Assembly (NCBI GenBank): GCA_019058295.1 | Contig: JAHPZI010000021.1 | Span: forward strand, 32,001 to 96,000 | DNA length: 64,000 bases | Source of the DNA: Promethearchaeota archaeon | GTDB lineage: Archaea > Asgardarchaeota > Lokiarchaeia > Sigyniarchaeales > SOKP01 | Reading direction: 5' to 3' | Shown here: piece after piece, positions 24,695 to 63,191 of the stretch | How positions within the stretch are numbered: the stretch's first letter is position 1 | How the letters are laid out: every line of letters begins with the position of its first letter | Made by a program: the position numbers and the translations under genes | Notes under the pieces: model-generated | Told to the model about the DNA's origin: nothing | Seen by the model: the letters and a program-made list of their open reading frames with translations, nothing else | Database searches by the model: none

Positions 24695-24722
24695 AGTTCA
24701 ATTTCAAAAATTATTTCAATGG

Positions 24723-24808
24723 TAAATCTTAAACATAACCATCATCACTAATATCTAATGCTCAATAATCTCAATGCATCGATTCCAAGTATAAGTTTAT
24801 ATATTTTA
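24723..24808. repeat. ~85-bp imperfect direct repeat, copy 2 (upstream of coiled-coil gene)
   Basis: Aligns with 19459..19543. Confidence 0.85.
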
Positions 24809-47426: not shown

Positions 47427-47589
47427 TTCAATCTAATCGAATTTTTTTTCTGAATTATATTAATTTCTTTTTCTTTTAAGAATTTATTACTATCCTAATA
47501 AAAATTCTTTCAGTGAAAAACCTATTCTTTATAAATAATAAATAAATAATAATATATAATATTCAAAATCAAGTAAACGGAAAAGAAAA

Positions 47590-47655
47590 ATGTTTAGAGA
47601 AAACTTAAAAGATCCTTCATCAGCTTGGTTTTGTTGTTGGCGTTGGCACGCATAG
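47590..47655 (+). CDS. Putative trp leader peptide 1 (MFRENLKDPSSAWFCCWRWHA*)
   Basis: 21-codon ORF with 3 Trp in the last 9 codons, directly upstream of trpD. Homologous to the leader upstream of trpE. Confidence 0.8.
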   Translation: MFRENLKDPSSAWFCCWRWHA

Positions 47656-47758
47656 AGCGTGCGCAATGGCTTTAATTATTTTTAGAATTTCTTGCTTTTT
47701 TCTCTTTATAATTCTTAAAATTTTATGTTTGAATTGTAAAGAATAAAGGGGTTTTCTA
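47638..47758 (+). promoter_or_regulatory. Putative attenuator RNA structure upstream of trpD (stop-codon hairpin plus U-rich second hairpin)
   Basis: GCACGC-ATAGA-GCGTGC hairpin at 47646..47662. 47703..47714 pairs with 47731..47742, with outer TAGAA/TTCTA pairing. Confidence 0.65.
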
Positions 47759-47808
47759 CAATATTAGAAATTCTAAATCTTAAAATTTTAATAAAAAAAA
47801 TAAAAAAA

Positions 47809-48873
47809 TTGAATAGGATGACAGAAGAAAAAATAGTTGATGGTTTGAAAAAAATAACTCAAAAAGTAAGCTTAACAAGTGAAGAAGCAGAAAATATAAT
47901 GAGAGAGATAATGTCTGGTAAGGTACAAGACGCTCAATTAGGAGCATTTTTAACAGGTTTAGCTATGAAAGGAGAATCTGTTGATGAAATCACAGGATTT
48001 GCTCTAATAATGAGAGAATTTGCAAATCAAATTGAACCTAATGTAGAAGGAGATTTATTAGATACTTGTGGAACTGGAGGAGATAAAATTAAAACATTCA
48101 ACATTAGTACAATTTCGGCCTTAGTTGTTGCAGGAGCTGGAATACCTGTTGCAAAACACGGAAATCGAGCTGTAACTGGTACATGTGGTAGTGCAGACTT
48201 ATTGGAGGGGTTAGGGGTGAAAATTGATTTACCTCCTGAAGAAGTTAAAACTTGTATTGAAAAAGTAGGTATTGGATTTATGTTTGCGCCTTTATTTCAT
48301 CCGGCGATGAAATATGCTATGCCTACTAGAAGGGCTTTAAAATTAAGAACTGTGTTTAATATACTTGGACCATTAACAAATCCTGCAAATGCCAAGTGTC
48401 ATGTATTAGGTGTATTTCAAAAAGATTTAACTCCTGTTATGGCCAAGGTACTAAATGGCTTAGGTGCAAAACATGTTTTTACAGTTCATAACTCATATGG
48501 TATTGATGAAGTAGCACCAGTAGGAATAAATTATATCACAGAAGTGAATAATGGAACAATTGAGAGTTATGCAATTACCAATGAAGATTTTGGTATTCCT
48601 GATTGTTCGATAAATGATATATTAGCGGGAAATTTAGAAGAAAATCTTAAAATCGCAGTCAATATCTTAAAAAATAAAGTTATCGATTCAAAATACAACA
48701 CTGTATTAATGAACGCAGCATTAGCTCTTAAAAGTGTAAATAAAGCAAGCGATATCAAAGAAGGAATTGAAATCGCTAAAAATGCTATTGAATCTGGAAG
48801 TGTTTTTGAAAAACTTAAACAATTTATCGAAGTATCTGGCGGAAATCAAGACAAGTTAATGAGTTTATTATAA
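47809..48873 (+). CDS. trpD: Anthranilate phosphoribosyltransferase (likely ATG start at 47818)
   Basis: Motifs DTCGTGGD, NIST, KHGNR and FNILGPLTNP. Confidence 0.97.
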   Translation: MNRMTEEKIVDGLKKITQKVSLTSEEAENIMREIMSGKVQDAQLGAFLTGLAMKGESVDEITGFALIMREFANQIEPNVEGDLLDTCGTGGDKIKTFNISTISALVVAGAGIPVAKHGNRAVTGTCGSADLLEGLGVKIDLPPEEVKTCIEKVGIGFMFAPLFHPAMKYAMPTRRALKLRTVFNILGPLTNPANAKCHVLGVFQKDLTPVMAKVLNGLGAKHVFTVHNSYGIDEVAPVGINYITEVNNGTIESYAITNEDFGIPDCSINDILAGNLEENLKIAVNILKNKVIDSKYNTVLMNAALALKSVNKASDIKEGIEIAKNAIESGSVFEKLKQFIEVSGGNQDKLMSLL

Positions 48874-48883
48874 AAGAAATAGC

Positions 48884-49702
48884 TTGAGATTAATGAGTTC
48901 GAATAAAATAAAAGAAATAGTGGAGCAACGGAAAAAATCTATTCAAAGAGATGTAGATTTCATGAGAGATTTAGGAAGTGAGATTATCAAAAAGAATCGG
49001 GGACCTTTAAGTGAGATTATTAAATATAATCAAGGGATTTCGATTATCTCAGAGATTAAACCAGCCTCTCCTACTTTAGGCGATATTAAAAAGAATATTA
49101 ATGTTAAGGCTATTGCTACAGAAATGGAAAGTGCAGGAGTAATTGGTTTAAGCGTTTTAACTGAACCAAATTATTTTAATGGTTCCTATGAGAATCTCAA
49201 GTTAGCAGTAGAAAGCACGAAATTGCCGTGTTTAATGAAAGATTTTGTTGTTGATGAGATCCAATATAAAATTGCTGCTCAAATAGGAGCAACTAATATT
49301 TTGATTATAAATTCAATTAGCAATTTGGAGGATTCATACCGCAAAGCTTTAGAATATAGCTTAGAACCTCTGATAGAAATCCATGATAGTGAAGAACTCA
49401 ATGATATTCGTCATTTATATGATATAGGTTTAAAGCCTGCATTAATCGGAGTGAATAATCGCAATTTGAAAACATTAAAAATTGATTTAAACACATCAAA
49501 AGTAATCATTCCGAAGTTGAAGGAAGAATTTGGAGATAAAATTCAAATTATTAGTGAAAGTGGAATAAATACAGAAGATGATATTAAGTTTTTACTTCAG
49601 TATAAAGCTAATGCATTTTTAATTGGTTCTTCAATAATGAAATCGAGTAATATAAGAGAAAAAATATTGTCATTAAGAGGTTTAATTAATAAAATAGGTT
49701 GA
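48884..49702 (+). CDS. trpC: Indole-3-glycerol-phosphate synthase
   Basis: Motifs EIKPASP, SVLTEP, KDF, GVNNRNL and SESGI. Confidence 0.95.
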   Translation: MRLMSSNKIKEIVEQRKKSIQRDVDFMRDLGSEIIKKNRGPLSEIIKYNQGISIISEIKPASPTLGDIKKNINVKAIATEMESAGVIGLSVLTEPNYFNGSYENLKLAVESTKLPCLMKDFVVDEIQYKIAAQIGATNILIINSISNLEDSYRKALEYSLEPLIEIHDSEELNDIRHLYDIGLKPALIGVNNRNLKTLKIDLNTSKVIIPKLKEEFGDKIQIISESGINTEDDIKFLLQYKANAFLIGSSIMKSSNIREKILSLRGLINKIG

Positions 49703-49706
49703 GAAA

Positions 49707-50018
49707 ATGGATTATAGAATAGATTTTGAGAAAATTAAATGGAAAGAACCTGCGATTGGTGTAAGATTTAAGTCTTTCATATCCAATAATAAACAAGTAC
49801 GCTTGGTTGAATTTACTGATGAATTTATAGAACCTGATTGGTGTACGAAAGGACATATAGGTTTTGTATTAGAAGGAGAATTAGAAATTAATTTTGATGG
49901 AAAGTTAGTTAAATATGGAGCGGATGATGGTATATTCATTCCTAAAGGACCAGAACATAAACACATGGCAAAATGCATAACTAAAACAGTAAAATTAATC
50001 TTAATAGAAGAAATTTAA
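49707..50018 (+). CDS. Cupin-fold protein (DHCW-cupin-like)
   Basis: WCTKGHIGFVLEGEL...HKH. Confidence 0.8.
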   Translation: MDYRIDFEKIKWKEPAIGVRFKSFISNNKQVRLVEFTDEFIEPDWCTKGHIGFVLEGELEINFDGKLVKYGADDGIFIPKGPEHKHMAKCITKTVKLILIEEI

Positions 50019-50031
50019 AGGTGAAATATAA

Positions 50032-50679
50032 ATGGAGTACATAAAAATATGTGGCTTAAAAGAAATCGAACACATTGAATTATGTAGGGATAATGATGCT
50101 AATGCCGTAGGTTTCATATACAATGTTCCTAGTTCTCCAAGAAATTTGGAAAAATCCAAATTAATGAATCTTTTAAAAGACATTCCTAAGAAATTATTAA
50201 CTGTAATTGTATTTAAACCCCAAAATATCTTAGAATTAGAAAGAGTAATAAATGAAATAGATGTTGATTTATATCAGATTCATAGTAATTTTGAAAATCT
50301 AGAAATGGAAGAAATTCAACCTGAATTGAAAAAAAAGATTATTTTAGCATTACAAGTAAATTCTTCCAATAAAGATGATGTAATTTATAAAATTAATAAA
50401 TATTATGACCAATTTTTTGGTTTTTTAATTGATAATAGTGAAGGTCATGGTACAGAATTTAATTTCAATATCGTTGCAGATATTATAAATAATACCAAAG
50501 GAGCGAGTATAATAGTTGCTGGAGGTATTGATAGTAACAATATTGAAAAGATAATTAGAGATTTAAACCCTTATGGAATTGATATAAGTAGTTCATTAGA
50601 ATCCGAAAAGGGGGTTAAAGATCCATTAAGAATTGAAAATTTTTTAAAAAAAGTAAATGAAATTAAGAAAACATTATGA
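50032..50679 (+). CDS. trpF: Phosphoribosylanthranilate isomerase
   Basis: Motifs IKICG, SPR, QIH, AGG and DISSSLE...KD. Confidence 0.93.
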   Translation: MEYIKICGLKEIEHIELCRDNDANAVGFIYNVPSSPRNLEKSKLMNLLKDIPKKLLTVIVFKPQNILELERVINEIDVDLYQIHSNFENLEMEEIQPELKKKIILALQVNSSNKDDVIYKINKYYDQFFGFLIDNSEGHGTEFNFNIVADIINNTKGASIIVAGGIDSNNIEKIIRDLNPYGIDISSSLESEKGVKDPLRIENFLKKVNEIKKTL

Positions 50680-50688
50680 GGGATAAAA

Positions 50689-51891
50689 ATGAAATATAGT
50701 GGGAGATATCCTAATAAGTGCGGTAAATTTGGGGATTTTGGAGGTATTTTTGCTCCAGAGGTTCTCATGCCAGCACTTAATGAGCTTACTGAAGCTTTTG
50801 AAAAATATAGAAATGATGAAAGTTTCAAAAAAGAGTTTTATCAGATACTCGAATCATATGGGGGTCGTCCAACACCTTTATTTTATGCTAAAAGATTAAG
50901 TGAAGATGTAGGATGCAAAGTATATTTGAAAAGAGAAGATTTACTTCATGGTGGAGCTCACAAATTAAACAATGTAATAGGACAGGCATTATTAGCCAAG
51001 AAAATGGGAAAAACAAAGCTTGTAGCAGAAACAGGTGCAGGGCAACATGGATTTGCTACTGCTATTGCTGGAGCTTATTTCGGCATGGAAACAAAGGTAT
51101 TCATGGGAGAAGTTGATATCGCCAGACAAGCATACAATGTATATCGCATGCAATTACTTGGAGCTGAAGTAATACCTGTAAAAATTGGTTCGAAAACATT
51201 AAAGGATGCGATTAATGATGGACTTAGATATTGGATCACCAATGTGAGAGATACTCACTACTTAATGGGAAGCGTTGTCGGTCCACATCCATATCCGCTA
51301 TTAGTGAGAGAATTCCAAAGAGTTATTGGAATTGAAACTAAAAAGCAAATAATGGAGTTAGAGGGTAGATTACCTAATGCAATCATCGCTTGTATTGGTG
51401 GTGGAAGTAATGCTATAGGAATAATGTATGATTTCATTGAAGATGAGAATGTCCAGTTAATTGGAGTTGAGGCTGCTGGAGAAGGATTAGAAACAGGAAA
51501 ACATTCAATAGCATTAGGGTTAGGTCGAAGAGGAGTATTACATGGATCCTTAATGTATCTATTACAAAATGAATATGGTAATATACTAAAGACACATTCT
51601 ATAAGTGCAGGACTAGATTATCCTGGTGTTGGCCCCGAACATTGTTTTTTAAAAGAATTAACAAGGCTTAGAGTAGAAACTGCAACAGATAATGAGACTT
51701 TAGCGTCTTTTCAAAAATTATCCGTTATAGAAGGAATTATTCCTGCATTGGAGTCATCACATGCACTTGCGTGCCTGGAAAAAATTAAGGGTGAGTTTAA
51801 TAAAGATGACATTGTAATAATTAATTTATCTGGTTCAGGTTCTAAAGATCTAAATATAATCAAACAGCGTATGGAGTTTAAAGTAAAATGA
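50689..51891 (+). CDS. trpB: Tryptophan synthase beta subunit (TrpB1 type)
   Basis: Motifs [24 protein letters not shown] and [11 protein letters not shown]. Confidence 0.97.
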
Positions 51892-52718
51892 ATCATACAA
51901 ATAGAATCTTGGACCTTTTTAATGATAAGAATGCATTAGAGGAAAAATATTTTATGCCCTTTCTAGTTTGTGGAGATCCTTCGATTGAACAGTTTATCTC
52001 AATGATTGAAAAAATCGATCCTTATATAGATATCCTTGAGTTAGGCATTCCTTTTAGCGACCCAATTGCTGATGGTCCTACCGTTCAAGAGGCAAATATG
52101 AGAGCATTCGAGGCAGGCATCAATACAAAAGTCGCGCTCGATACAATTAAGAAAATCAGGACATTTTTCCAAAAACCGATTGTTATTTTAACTTATTACA
52201 ACATTTTAATTCAAGGATCAGAGACAATAGAAAGTTCATTGGATAATACATTGAGAAGATTCAAGGAAAGTGGGATAGACGGAATTGTTATCGCCGATCT
52301 TCCAATTGAAGAAGCAGGTTTAGCGTTAAAATATTGTAAAAAACATAATATATCCCTTATATTTTTAATTGCTCCTACAACTACAGATGATAGATTAGAA
52401 AAAATCTTGAAAGAAGCAAGAGGATTTGTCTATTTAATATCTATATTGGGTGTTACCGGTGCTCGGGAAAAAATCGCTCAAATCACGAAAGAAACGATTA
52501 AAAGAGTAAAAAGTAAAATCAAAACCAAAATTCCAATTTTCTTGGGATTCGGTATATCTACACCGGAACATGCATCCACTCTAGTTGAATTAGGAGCCGA
52601 TGGAATTATCATTGGCTCGGCAATGATAGATGTTATTAAGAGAAATCTAAGCGATTTCACCAAAATGGAAAAAGAACTTGTGGAATTTGTATCAAGTATA
52701 AATAATGCGATTAAGTGA
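51888..52718 (+). CDS. trpA: Tryptophan synthase alpha subunit
   Basis: Motifs [18 protein letters not shown] and GFGIS. Confidence 0.97.
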
Positions 52719-58388: not shown

Positions 58389-58592
58389 TTTAATATTCCC
58401 CTAGTCTTAGAAATCTCGAATTTTTTTATTATTAATTGTTTTTAGTTATCCTAATTTTTAAATATCATCATTCTATTTAACAAGCTTCGTTTTAAATATT
58501 AGAATAAAAGATTAATAATTGGATAAAAAAAATATAAATACAACCTAAACCTTATTCTATTAAAAAACCTCAAAACAAGTTGTTTACTAAGT

Positions 58593-58664
58593 ATGAATAA
58601 TATGAAAAATAGTGTTGATTTTCAAGAACCAACTTGGTTTTGGGACTGGCGTTGGCACGCATAG
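58593..58664 (+). CDS. Putative trp leader peptide 2 (MNNMKNSVDFQEPTWFWDWRWHA*)
   Basis: 23-codon ORF (alternative ATG at 58602) with 4 Trp in the last 9 codons, directly upstream of trpE. Confidence 0.8.
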   Translation: MNNMKNSVDFQEPTWFWDWRWHA

Positions 58665-58735
58665 AACGTGCGCAATGGCTTAACTTATTTTAGGATTTCT
58701 TTTCTTATAACGCATATAAAGAATAAGGGATTCTA
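58647..58735 (+). promoter_or_regulatory. Putative attenuator RNA structure upstream of trpE
   Basis: GCACG-CATAGAA-CGTGC hairpin. Second hairpin at 58691..58735 (TAGGATTTCTT...AAGGGATTCTA). Confidence 0.65.
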
Positions 58736-58810
58736 ATTCAAATTTTAATTATTAAGTTTTTTATTCAATAAAATAAATGATAAAAGAAATAGAAAAATAG
58801 TGGAATTGTA

Positions 58811-60304
58811 ATGGAATTTGATATTCATATTGAAAAAATTGGAGAATTGGATGATATATTTGGGTTTTATAAATATTTAGTGAAACGTTATGATTTGAAA
58901 AAACATGCTTTATTAGAGTCCGCTTCAGAAAATACAAAAGAAACCTTATATAGTTTTATTGCAATGCAACCGGATTTCATGCTTGAAATTAATGAGGATA
59001 AGTTTAAAATATATGATATCTCTACTGCCCGAGGGGAAAGAATTAAAGAATACGTAGAATCTAGAGATCCTGCCGTGGAAAGACCGCATAATCCCTTGCC
59101 ATTTAAAGATAATGTCGAATATAATATGGTTGCGCTCGATACTTTGAGCCATCTCACACCTTATTCTAATCTTCCTTTCACAGAATTATTCCCAAGGAAC
59201 ATCTTTTACGGCGGGATGCTTGGGTATATAGGGTATGACGTAGTTGCTCCTTATGTGGGTTATAAATCTACAAGCGAATTTCCAGATATTTTAATGGGGC
59301 TCTATACAAAAGCATTGGTCTATTCACATAAATCAAATGCATTATTCATGATTGATAATAGCATTAATGATTATTCAAAAGATAAAGATATCCGATATCA
59401 ACTCAGCTTATTTAATAGAAATCATAATTCAGATGAAGTTGGAGAAATATCCTTGGATATTGAAGAGGTGGATGAATCTCATTTCAGATCCAACACAAGC
59501 AAGAGTGCTCATGAAAGAATGGTAGAAAAGACAAAAGAATACATTTATGATGGAGATATTATACAAGCAGTTATCTCCCGAAGGCTCTATACAGAGACAA
59601 AAATAGATCCTATGGCAATTTATGAGGTTCTAAGAGTTCTTAATCCATCGCAATATATGTACAATATAAATTTTGGTAATATTCGCATCATTGGGAGTAG
59701 TCCAGAAGCACTTATCTCAAAAAATAAAGATATTCTTAATACTGTGCCAATTGCCGGAACCATAAGAAGAGGCAAAACTCCAGAAGAAGATACAAAATTA
59801 GAAAAGGAATTGTTAGAGGACCCAAAGGAAAAGGCTGAACATATCATGCTTGTGGATTTAGCACGCAACGACCTCGCAAAAGTTTCATATCCAGGTTCTG
59901 TTGATACATTTGAACTCATGACAGTTCAAAAATATCAAAAAGTTCAACATATTGTTAGTAAAGTGAGAAGTAAGACACCTCTTGATGGGTATCAAGTTCT
60001 AAAAAGCGTATTCCCAGCAGGTACTCTTTCAGGAGCACCTAAAAAGCGTGCTATGGAAATAATACAAGAATTAGAAACAGAATCGAGAGGACCTTATGGG
60101 GGTGGTGTCGGCTATTTCTCATTTAATGGAGATATGGCGTTTGCCATTGCGATTAGGACACTTTTTGGGATGAATGGTACATATTTTGCTCAAGCAGGAG
60201 GCGGGATTGTCGCAGATAGCCAACCACATGAAGAGTACACAGAGACCTACAATAAGTTATATAGTGTTATAAAATCGATAAAAATTGCGGAGGCAAGAAA
60301 ATAA
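58811..60304 (+). CDS. trpE: Anthranilate synthase component I
   Basis: Motifs LLES, NPSQYM, SSPE, PIAGT, EHIMLVDLARND and PAGTLSGAPK. Confidence 0.95.
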   Translation: MEFDIHIEKIGELDDIFGFYKYLVKRYDLKKHALLESASENTKETLYSFIAMQPDFMLEINEDKFKIYDISTARGERIKEYVESRDPAVERPHNPLPFKDNVEYNMVALDTLSHLTPYSNLPFTELFPRNIFYGGMLGYIGYDVVAPYVGYKSTSEFPDILMGLYTKALVYSHKSNALFMIDNSINDYSKDKDIRYQLSLFNRNHNSDEVGEISLDIEEVDESHFRSNTSKSAHERMVEKTKEYIYDGDIIQAVISRRLYTETKIDPMAIYEVLRVLNPSQYMYNINFGNIRIIGSSPEALISKNKDILNTVPIAGTIRRGKTPEEDTKLEKELLEDPKEKAEHIMLVDLARNDLAKVSYPGSVDTFELMTVQKYQKVQHIVSKVRSKTPLDGYQVLKSVFPAGTLSGAPKKRAMEIIQELETESRGPYGGGVGYFSFNGDMAFAIAIRTLFGMNGTYFAQAGGGIVADSQPHEEYTETYNKLYSVIKSIKIAEARK

Positions 60305-60903
60305 TGAAAATCCTATTTATTAACAATTATGATAGTTTTGTTTATAATTTGGTCAATTATATCTGTCAATTAGAACCCAACGGCCAAATTATTATCGAGG
60401 ATAACCATATTGCGGTGGACAAGATTAAAGAAATGAATGTTGATAAAATAATTATTTCACCAGGACCTGGACATCCTAAGTATGACACGGGCACAGTAAT
60501 TCCCATCATTAAAGAATTTTATTCCAAAATACCAATATTAGGAATTTGCCTAGGGCATCAAGCTATTGTCGAAGCTTTCGGCGAAGATGAGAATATGGAA
60601 TATGTGGGCAGAGCTAAAGTAGGGCCCATGCACGGCAAGGAATCTAAAGTCTTTCACGACCAAGAAACAATTCTTAAGGACATCCCTAATCCACTCCAAG
60701 TAATTAGATATCACTCACTTTCCGCAAAATCCGATATTTTACCCCAAAACCTTAAAATTAGTGCGACTGCGGATGATGGCACAATCATGGGGGTTAGGCA
60801 TAAACAATATCCTATAGAAGGGGTCCAATTCCATCCCGAGTCGATAAAAATGAAACCTTATGGAATACAATTATTAAAAAATTTCTTAGAATTAAAAATA
60901 TAA
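60304..60903 (+). CDS. trpG: Anthranilate synthase component II (glutamine amidotransferase)
   Basis: Motifs NYDSF, SPGPG, GICLGHQ, RYHSL and QFHPES. TAATG stop/start overlap with trpE. Confidence 0.95.
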   Translation: MKILFINNYDSFVYNLVNYICQLEPNGQIIIEDNHIAVDKIKEMNVDKIIISPGPGHPKYDTGTVIPIIKEFYSKIPILGICLGHQAIVEAFGEDENMEYVGRAKVGPMHGKESKVFHDQETILKDIPNPLQVIRYHSLSAKSDILPQNLKISATADDGTIMGVRHKQYPIEGVQFHPESIKMKPYGIQLLKNFLELKI

Positions 60904-63070: not shown

Positions 63071-63158
63071 TTTCCTATTGAAGATGTTCAATCCCCCCGA
63101 ATCCATTAGAATGAAGCCTCATGGAATGCAAATCCTGAAAAATTTCTTAAAATTATAA
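63071..63158 (+). pseudogene. Frameshifted remnant of the trpG 3' end
   Basis: Reads FPIEDVQ-(frameshift)-PESIRMKPHGMQILKNFLKL*, compared with TrpG YPIEGVQFHPESIKMKPYGIQLLKNFLELKI*. Confidence 0.85.
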
Positions 63159-63191
63159 ATTTTAATTATCAAAGTCCCCTTTAATTATATT

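Follow-up and report, generated by a model that had tools for sequence, protein, structure and literature searches.

A candidate tryptophan-sensing leader cassette before trpEG in an Asgard archaeon

Two leaders before the trp genes

We analyzed a 64,000-nucleotide (nt) stretch of contig JAHPZI010000021.1 (assembly GCA_019058295.1), here called the window, and all positions are given in its coordinates. The source is a metagenome-assembled genome (MAG) of a Promethearchaeota (Asgard) archaeon, with a size of 3.2 Mb, a G+C content of 31%, and a completeness of 79%. It encodes a TBP gene and an actin (407 bits), and its closest public relatives are Promethearchaeota MAGs (the group formerly named Lokiarchaeota), with 95% TrpD identity to AMARA_1S; this relative and another, TEKIR_6S, are from lake sediments. 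Within its family, where genomes carry G numbers and extracted loci L numbers, it is genome G000. The window holds the anthranilate synthase genes trpE and trpG, preceded by a short open reading frame (ORF) with clustered Trp (W) codons and by RNA hairpins. Judged by its sequence features, this element is probably a Trp-sensing leader, that is, a ribosome-mediated attenuator of trpEG.

Promoter, leader ORF, hairpins, and trp genes follow one another on the same strand (Table 1), which is the layout of the cis-acting control that a preliminary description of this DNA had proposed. The same description had recognized the ORF as a second Trp leader heading trpEG, and this holds: its four UGG codons (58635, 58641, 58647, and 58653) all fall within the last nine codons, and 146 nt separate its stop codon from the trpE start. 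The stop codon lies in the loop of the first hairpin, P1, with the last UGG and an Arg CGU codon in the 5' arm. Regulatory codons are thus placed as in attenuators, in that P1 contains them and its formation would be blocked by a stalled ribosome.

A related cassette heads the trpD operon. The two share a 35-nt block, at 58647-58681 and 47638-47672, that is identical at 34 of 35 positions, as had been described, and the homology extends well beyond it. An ungapped alignment covers 77 nt at 82% identity; once gaps are allowed, similarity begins at an identical TATAAATA box, continues over a 5' leader motif common to both, the W cluster, and P1, and reaches the second helix, P2. The spacing between TATA box and start codon is also identical (52 nt). 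P2 measures 97 nt before trpD and 47 nt before trpE, with the same closing stem.

Table 1. Features of the two trp leader cassettes and their genes (window coordinates).
Feature	Position	Strand	Remarks
trpD leader cassette	47530..47777	+	TATA 47530-47537; P1 47641-47668; T5 47679-47683; T6 47696-47701; P2 47681-47777
trpD leader ORF, MFRENLKDPSSAWFCCWRWHA, then stop	47590..47655	+	3 UGG; ends 162 nt before trpD ATG (47818)
trpD-trpC-cupin-trpF-trpB-trpA operon	47818..52718	+	Headed by the trpD leader, ~11 kb upstream of the trpEG leader
TATA box TATAAATA, preceded by an A-run	58533..58540	+	Likely promoter of the leader transcript; 52 nt before leader ATG
trpEG leader ORF, MNNMKNSVDFQEPTWFWDWRWHA, then stop	58593..58664	+	23 codons plus TAG (58662-58664)
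Hairpin P1	58650..58677	+	Outer stem CGUUG/CAAUG, inner stem GCACG/CGUGC, one bulged G
U-rich tract 3' of P1	58678..58710	+	Overlaps the P2 5' arm
Helix P2	58690..58736	+	Long irregular hairpin, 47 nt; closing stem UAGGAUUUCU / GGGAUUCUAA
T6 tract	58757..58762	+	20 nt after P2; candidate archaeal termination signal
trpE, anthranilate synthase component I	58811..60304	+	TIGR00564 435 bits; TIGR01820 434 bits
trpG, anthranilate synthase component II	60304..60903	+	TIGR00566 179 bits

A chance origin of the two Trp leaders is excluded, as the preliminary description had argued. With up to three mismatches permitted, the 35-nt block occurs exactly twice in the 3.2-Mb genome. A covariance model built on the leader core (R1), which we ran against the source genome and 121 family genomes, returned only the two leader loci from the source genome (94.7 and 90.1 bits). 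Trp makes up 1.14% of the residues in its long ORFs, and only 22 short ORFs with at least three W in their last 10 codons exist in 6.4 Mb (both strands of the genome). Among trpD loci outside the Asgard archaea, none of 61 has such a W-rich ORF within 600 nt upstream by the same query; at the same strict threshold, 12 of 19 Asgard trpD loci do.

In this 79%-complete genome, the cassette is carried by two loci only, the number suggested for the Trp regulon. No leader precedes trpS in the source genome, where the upstream gap of that gene is short, and no trpB2 gene was found in the assembly at its present completeness. The next R1 match, on contig 14 (27.7 bits), was rejected as a third member; it lies between convergent gene ends and lacks a Trp ORF. 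Other W-rich short ORFs of the source genome, before genes for a proteasome subunit, a DUF389 protein, and an unknown protein, were taken as chance.

The genes neighboring the trp loci encode a rubrerythrin and a glycyl radical enzyme, and no regulator gene is adjacent. Within the trpD operon, a 103-amino acid (aa) cupin-domain gene (49707-50018) sits between trpC and trpF. The 3' end of trpG (60835-60899) recurs 2.2 kb downstream (63096-63160; 80% identity over 65 nt), and this second copy is a relic of rearrangement beside trpEG.

Relatives of the cassette

In a maximum-likelihood tree of 24 cassettes, the trpD leaders of the genus (G006, G000, G007, and G005) form a clade with support of 99/99. 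The trpE leader of the source genome falls outside this clade; it groups with the trpE leaders of G005, G007, and G063 (82/92), and is placed with trpE and trpA leaders of other genera. Because of this position, we interpret the trpE copy as an old paralogue rather than a recent duplicate, and both copies as descendants of one cassette. The second leader had been called an independent copy, which is too strong for paralogues, although the split between them is old. We had considered that the trpE copy was born when the operon split in the G000/G005/G007 clade; this was withdrawn after the covariance-model search and the tree. That four UGG codons and P1 were kept over a long separate evolution speaks more strongly for function than a recent duplication would. 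The trpD leaders of the source clade have lost UGG to UGU (Trp to Cys), with four W in G006, three in the source genome, and two in G005 and G007. This loss came after the cassettes diverged, and the trpE leaders keep four W (window 47626-47655, L027, L031). The unequal counts may give the trpD and trpE units different sensitivity.

The cassette family heads several trp transcription units in this archaeal family. The R1 search of the 121 family genomes returned 14 further copies, of which 12 have an intact leader ORF (four before trpE, five before trpA, and three before a GNAT-methyltransferase gene); one of the other two is decayed, and one, before a GNAT-methyltransferase gene, is cut by the contig end. 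Eleven other genomes have an orthologous leader ORF before trpE or trpA. Leaders of the "TWFWxWRWHA" type stand before trpE-trpG in G041, G048, and G063, with a remnant in G058, and before trpA-trpE-trpG in G004, G009, G014, G054, and G018. In G078 and G082, they precede a GNAT-methyltransferase fusion just past trpG, the end of which is seen; the unit in G100 is placed after trpG by coordinates only, and the unit is also present in G004. The N-termini show orthology as well, MNHLNESTGFCKSTWFW of the sister trpE leader being similar to MTELNNNYDFCKISWFW (before trpA in G009) and MNNKKEHHCFYKITWFW (G018). At trpD, each of the 24 family loci with sufficient upstream sequence has a W-rich ORF 130 to 500 nt before the gene, and similar ORFs are found in other Asgard families. 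At all of about 40 loci, trp or trp-linked genes directly follow the cassette in the same orientation, and it stays with them through gene rearrangements.

Several loci merit separate mention. At the GNAT-methyltransferase units (L219 in G100, L220 in G078, L221 in G082, and L209 in G004), a Trp-type leader, MTTIKKNLSLRKFFISWFWVLHWHA and a stop codon with P1 and P2, precedes a 385-aa GNAT-methyltransferase fusion and a second methyltransferase; the unit may represent a Trp-regulated modification pathway. The decayed copy, L210 (G004 C147:3794-3864), has two TGG codons changed to TAG and TGA and is followed by a truncated trpA (118 aa, 56% identity), and it looks like a dead duplicate of the cassette plus the start of its gene. 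Other Asgard families (L062-L068, L058, L060, L056, and L059) carry a different conserved motif of the GUGAGGUAUAGCCUUUGG type upstream of trpE or trpD. It can be read as a short ORF, M-x-Y-x-L/V-W, in some cases with W-rich tails that run to a stop codon (LWRSWWWI, LPWWHWF, and TTWFCWLFWYW). Genomes with WQWPWR-type leaders have an unannotated ORF of 76 to 100 aa, which has no Pfam match, between the leader and trpD, overlapping the trpD start (L036:1242-1499; also L029, L030, L038, L040, and L042).

Leaders before other biosynthetic genes had been suggested as a check, and this was answered in part. An Ile-rich leader, MNKIIPIRVIGIIIIGII and a stop codon, with ten Ile among 18 codons, lies 103 nt before a LeuA/CimA-type synthase gene of the source genome (G000 contig C28:23096-23152, minus strand; loci L083 and L166). 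Directly 3' of it is a 14-bp hairpin ending in a U run (U5). Ile-rich ORFs are found 91 to 118 nt before the LeuA/CimA-type gene at 13 of 15 complete family loci (source genome included) and at three sister-family loci. With the Ile leader as a second case, leader-peptide sensing is not a one-off, and cognate-codon leaders are a general device in these archaea.

Of the other amino acid leader candidates in the source genome, none held up. The His-rich MVNLKHNHHH (window 24719-24751) follows a gene end, precedes an unknown ORF, and was taken as chance. Equally unconvincing were a Phe-rich ORF before a ThiF/E1-like gene, Tyr-rich ORFs before an MntR-like and an unknown gene, and a Met-rich ORF before carA.

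Reading frame, peptide tail, and RNA structure

The Trp codons carry a coding signal. In the last 12 codons of 27 leaders, TGG occurs 94 times in frame and three times out of frame. The W frame was selected for having an ATG-started ORF, so that its 27 of 27 is no test; of the other two frames, one has an ATG-started ORF across the entire W cluster at 4 of the 27 loci and the other at 1. UGG clusters always lie within an ATG-to-stop ORF of 17 to 35 codons, and orthologues differ in ORF length by 3 or 6 nt, which are multiples of three. N-terminal codons drift freely, with the ATG and the frame retained, as the preliminary description had noted from the two copies. A TATA box is located 42 to 55 nt upstream of the ATG, with an A-rich run on its 5' side, in 35 of 39 family leaders. 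Because this box precedes the leader ATG, the leader would be the first ORF of the predicted transcript.

We considered whether the W-rich ORF could be a by-product of a UGG-rich structured RNA (P1, a CAWUGG motif, and P2) that is read by a trans-acting factor, be it a protein, uncharged tRNA-Trp, or tryptophan. The nucleotide core is indeed highly conserved (GUUGGCA, UGGCG, CAWUGG, and the P2 closing stem), the arms of P2 are conserved rather than covarying, and an antiterminator partner was not found. Such an RNA would not account for UGG codons that keep almost entirely to one frame, always inside an ORF, nor for N-terminal codons that drift while the frame is held. An Ile-codon leader before an Ile/Leu pathway gene is likewise unexplained by a Trp-specific ligand or a tRNA sensor. 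Furthermore, no Rfam family matched in the window at gathering score, including the bacterial Trp leader model RF00513, and lowering the threshold to E values up to 10 across 58480-58830 gave two noise matches only. We regard a trans-read RNA as unlikely.

The preliminary description had treated the C-terminal WRWHA and stop codon as invariant and had raised a nascent-chain arrest motif like that of TnaC, with a bearing on eukaryotic upstream ORF control. The wider family does not bear out the invariance. Tails include WRWHA, WFWRA, WLWRA, WPWRWQ, WPWR, MPWRY, WWRV, WWRA, WHWHA, WPWHA, and WRWHV, and what is conserved across them is the UGG codons and the hairpin nucleotides. Of 43 Arg codons in the leaders, 36 (84%) are CGY, compared with 16% in the long ORFs of the genome, which fits a GGCG stem. 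One pair of P1 is C-G in the trpD copies, C.A in the trpE copy of the source genome, and U-A in the trpE copy of G007, and the last of these steps changes the final Ala to Val. The constraint on the tail thus acts mainly on the RNA and not on the peptide.

These observations also bear on the arrest model itself, in which nascent W-x-W-R-W-H-A and free Trp would stall the ribosome at the stop codon and block a termination factor. In its favor are a conserved stop codon context, a W-R dipeptide near the C-terminus of nearly all leaders, and U-rich RNA beside the stop that could load aCPSF1/FttA. It is unsupported because the tail varies widely in sequence, because the Ala-to-Val change restores a base pair, and because CGY use tracks the stem, W-R being encoded by the UGG-CGY that forms it. 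Tail length before the stop varies as well, and the logic is wrong for a biosynthetic operon, as free Trp would induce it. The likeness to TnaC is that a ribosome held near the leader end may shield RNA from a termination factor (in archaea, aCPSF1/FttA); TnaC, in contrast, needs a conserved peptide and free Trp and induces a catabolic operon, whereas the trpEG leader has a variable peptide and Trp codons before a biosynthetic operon. An arrest peptide is therefore very unlikely, and a link to the origin of eukaryotic upstream ORFs is speculation.

P1 shows compensatory changes. At least eight different stem sequences keep complementarity, such as GCACGC/GCGUGC, GGCGCG/CGCGCU, GGCGUU/AACGCC, and GCGCC/GGCGC, and the outer stem switches between CGUUG/CAAUG and CAGUG/CAUUG. 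The stop codon lies inside a hairpin in 25 of 27 leaders, and the P1 loop ranges from 4 to 11 nt. We analyzed P1 with per-sequence folds and a model-based alignment (A4), in which 92% of cells are paired and both sides differ at three pairs; 9 of 500 shuffles do likewise. A MAFFT alignment of 26 leaders, in which the hairpin arms were misaligned, yielded no structure in RNAalifold, and this approach was dropped.

As DNA, P1 is an inverted repeat between the promoter and the trp genes, common to two trp units, and could be read as an operator for a dimeric Trp repressor, with the ORF irrelevant. There is an archaeal precedent in the TrpY repressor of Methanothermobacter, which controls trp genes by tryptophan and binds DNA boxes at the promoter. 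The trpEG cassette differs from TrpY control in having a leader ORF with RNA covariation and no adjacent regulator gene. Moreover, the palindrome lies at least 110 nt downstream of the TATA box, within the transcribed region, and arms that change in a compensatory way between genera around a loop of variable length suit RNA rather than a protein site. In-frame UGG codons would also go unexplained, and an operator is accordingly exceedingly improbable.

Downstream of P1, the RNA is U-rich. In 24 leaders, the 40 nt after P1 contain 52% T and 28% A, compared with 37% T and 45% A in flanking segments; the loci are related, so that the test overstates the difference. A P2 closing stem of the UAGAAUUUCU/AGAAAUUCUAA type is present in at least 15 leaders of all classes, around an interior of about 20 to 75 nt, and its arms are conserved in sequence rather than covarying. 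In all nine trpE- or trpA-class leaders in which the P2 3' arm was recognized, a run of T6 to T10 starts 18 to 20 nt past the matched motif of that arm. The first trpE codons are complementary to sequence 3' of P2, a feature that is ancestral to the trpD leaders as well and so is probably coincidence. A bacterial promoter and terminator scan was uninformative for an archaeon. Archaeal terminators are U tracts of 4 to 7 nt that do not need a hairpin and are recognized by aCPSF1/FttA (PMC8716108). FttA and a coupled ribosome have been proposed to be steric competitors (PMC11616081).

The T tract also allows another view, in which the leader is its own short transcription unit that ends at U6 and makes a small RNA or W-rich micropeptide, with a separate trpE promoter and an indirect or trans-acting link to trp. 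The tract keeps a constant distance to P2, and between it and trpE there is AT-rich, TATA-like sequence, about 40 nt before the gene. Trans activity of trp attenuator RNAs and peptides is reported from bacteria (PMC7298713, PMC7968998). Yet the sequence after the T tract lacks the A-rich transcription factor B recognition element and the TATAAATA of the leader promoter, and the peptide N-terminus is unconstrained. A separate unit would also not be expected to stay directly upstream of co-oriented trp or trp-linked genes in about 40 loci, and to remain attached when genes are rearranged. We therefore consider it highly improbable.

A proposed two-state model and its place among leader systems

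For an attenuator of trpEG, we propose the following mechanism. Transcription would start about 25 nt past the TATA box, and the 23-codon leader would be the first frame on the RNA. When charged tRNA-Trp is plentiful, the ribosome would pass the four UGG codons and exit at the UAG, and P1 would close. The polymerase, with no ribosome trailing it, would then cross the U-rich stretch, P2, and the U6 tract, and would mostly stop before trpE. When tRNA-Trp is scarce, a ribosome parked on UGG codons in or just before the P1 5' arm would hold P1 open, and more polymerases would read into trpE-trpG. This would be a two-state switch with P1 as the sole ribosome-sensitive element, set by a long wait at UGG or a quick exit at the stop; closed P1 and no ribosome would favor termination in the U-rich zone or at the U6 tract. 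P2 could serve as a platform at a fixed distance from U6, as a shield for the U-rich RNA, or as a block to backtracking. What the sequences show is the anatomy and its conservation, the Trp codons in frame, the covariation of P1, the position of the promoter, and a link to trp genes alone. We infer that the leader is translated, that stalling is the signal, and that transcription termination is the output rather than RNA stability or translation; the tract used may be the U-rich zone or the U6 tract.

We favor a two-state switch because the elements of the classical one were not found. The 3' arm of P1 has no downstream partner beyond shuffled controls (z ~0 in 21 leaders), and thus no 2:3 antiterminator. 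Constrained folds with a ribosome footprint imposed leave P2 unchanged. A terminator scan found no G+C-rich hairpin with an immediate U run at either leader, neither after P1 nor after P2. These results weigh against an attenuator, and further points weigh in the same direction. Folding z-scores of the P1 region are modest for single sequences (mean -0.9). An open P1 would have to act on termination 20 to 100 nt downstream, and the archaeal polymerase is reported to be hairpin-independent. The model needs a kinetic argument, since P1 is open while a ribosome occupies the stop codon too: the stay there would be short and that at UGG long. There may be a second promoter between the leader and trpE in DNA of 31% G+C, and the whole interpretation is drawn from the sequence of an uncultured MAG. 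The output may also run through RNA stability. An attenuator is a well-supported reading of the element itself, and the proposed control of termination is more tentative.

In Escherichia coli, the 1:2 hairpin of the trp leader has Trp codons in its 5' arm, and the leader stop codon falls between the arms. The archaeal leader resembles this trpL type (RF00513) in having a short ORF of clustered Trp codons before trp genes, in the Trp codons of the hairpin 5' arm and the stop codon between the arms, and in the U-rich sequence downstream, and separate trp units each have their own leader. The front half therefore matches, but no counterpart of the back half is present: a 2:3 antiterminator is lacking, as is a G+C-rich terminator hairpin with an immediate U run. 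Instead, there is the long A+U-rich helix P2 and a U6 to U10 tract 18 to 20 nt after it. The host also differs, being an archaeon with a eukaryote-like RNA polymerase and without Rho or NusA-type machinery.

The trpEG leader shares its logic with the single-hairpin leader-peptide switches of translational attenuation (cat-86 and ermC) and with the leaderless poly-Cys small ORFs of mycobacteria (bioRxiv 10.1101/834739), where there are likewise two states, a parked ribosome opens one hairpin that forms again behind passing ribosomes, and no three-helix switch is involved. The poly-Cys ORFs also sense the cognate amino acid through its own codons. In those systems, however, the 3' arm hides the ribosome-binding site of the next gene, whereas the next start codon of the trpEG leader is 146 nt away and unpaired with P1. 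Because the start codon is distant and unpaired with P1, the output for trpEG is more likely to be transcriptional.

Our full-text literature searches on archaeal leader-peptide attenuation returned bacterial work only, with no description of archaeal Trp leaders, and attenuation is absent from a review of archaeal transcription-translation coupling. Leader-peptide attenuation is the textbook case of regulation that requires transcription and translation to be coupled, and, to judge from our literature search, it has been described for bacteria only.

Taken beyond trpEG, we lean toward the view that Asgard archaea use leader-peptide sensing of a bacterial style generally, on a eukaryote-like transcription machine. 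Portable cassettes of promoter, cognate-codon mini-ORF, P1, P2, and U tract would stand before trpD, trpA/E/G, and GNAT-methyltransferase genes, with an Ile version before LeuA/CimA, and in place of an antiterminator, a parked ribosome would control termination that depends on the U tract or on FttA. If this is true, ribosome-mediated attenuation would be recorded for the first time in Archaea, and in a mechanistic form that is new. The diverged copies, together with those before other units, would then form a natural mutational series, which would show the essential parts (UGG codons, P1, the P2 closing stem, and the U tract) and the free ones (N-terminal codons and the P2 interior). The leader would further be a natural template for the effect of a ribosome on termination by a Pol II-like polymerase and a CPSF73-type factor. 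It would also mean that archaea regulate genes through the coupling of transcription and translation, and do so in the lineage closest to eukaryotes.

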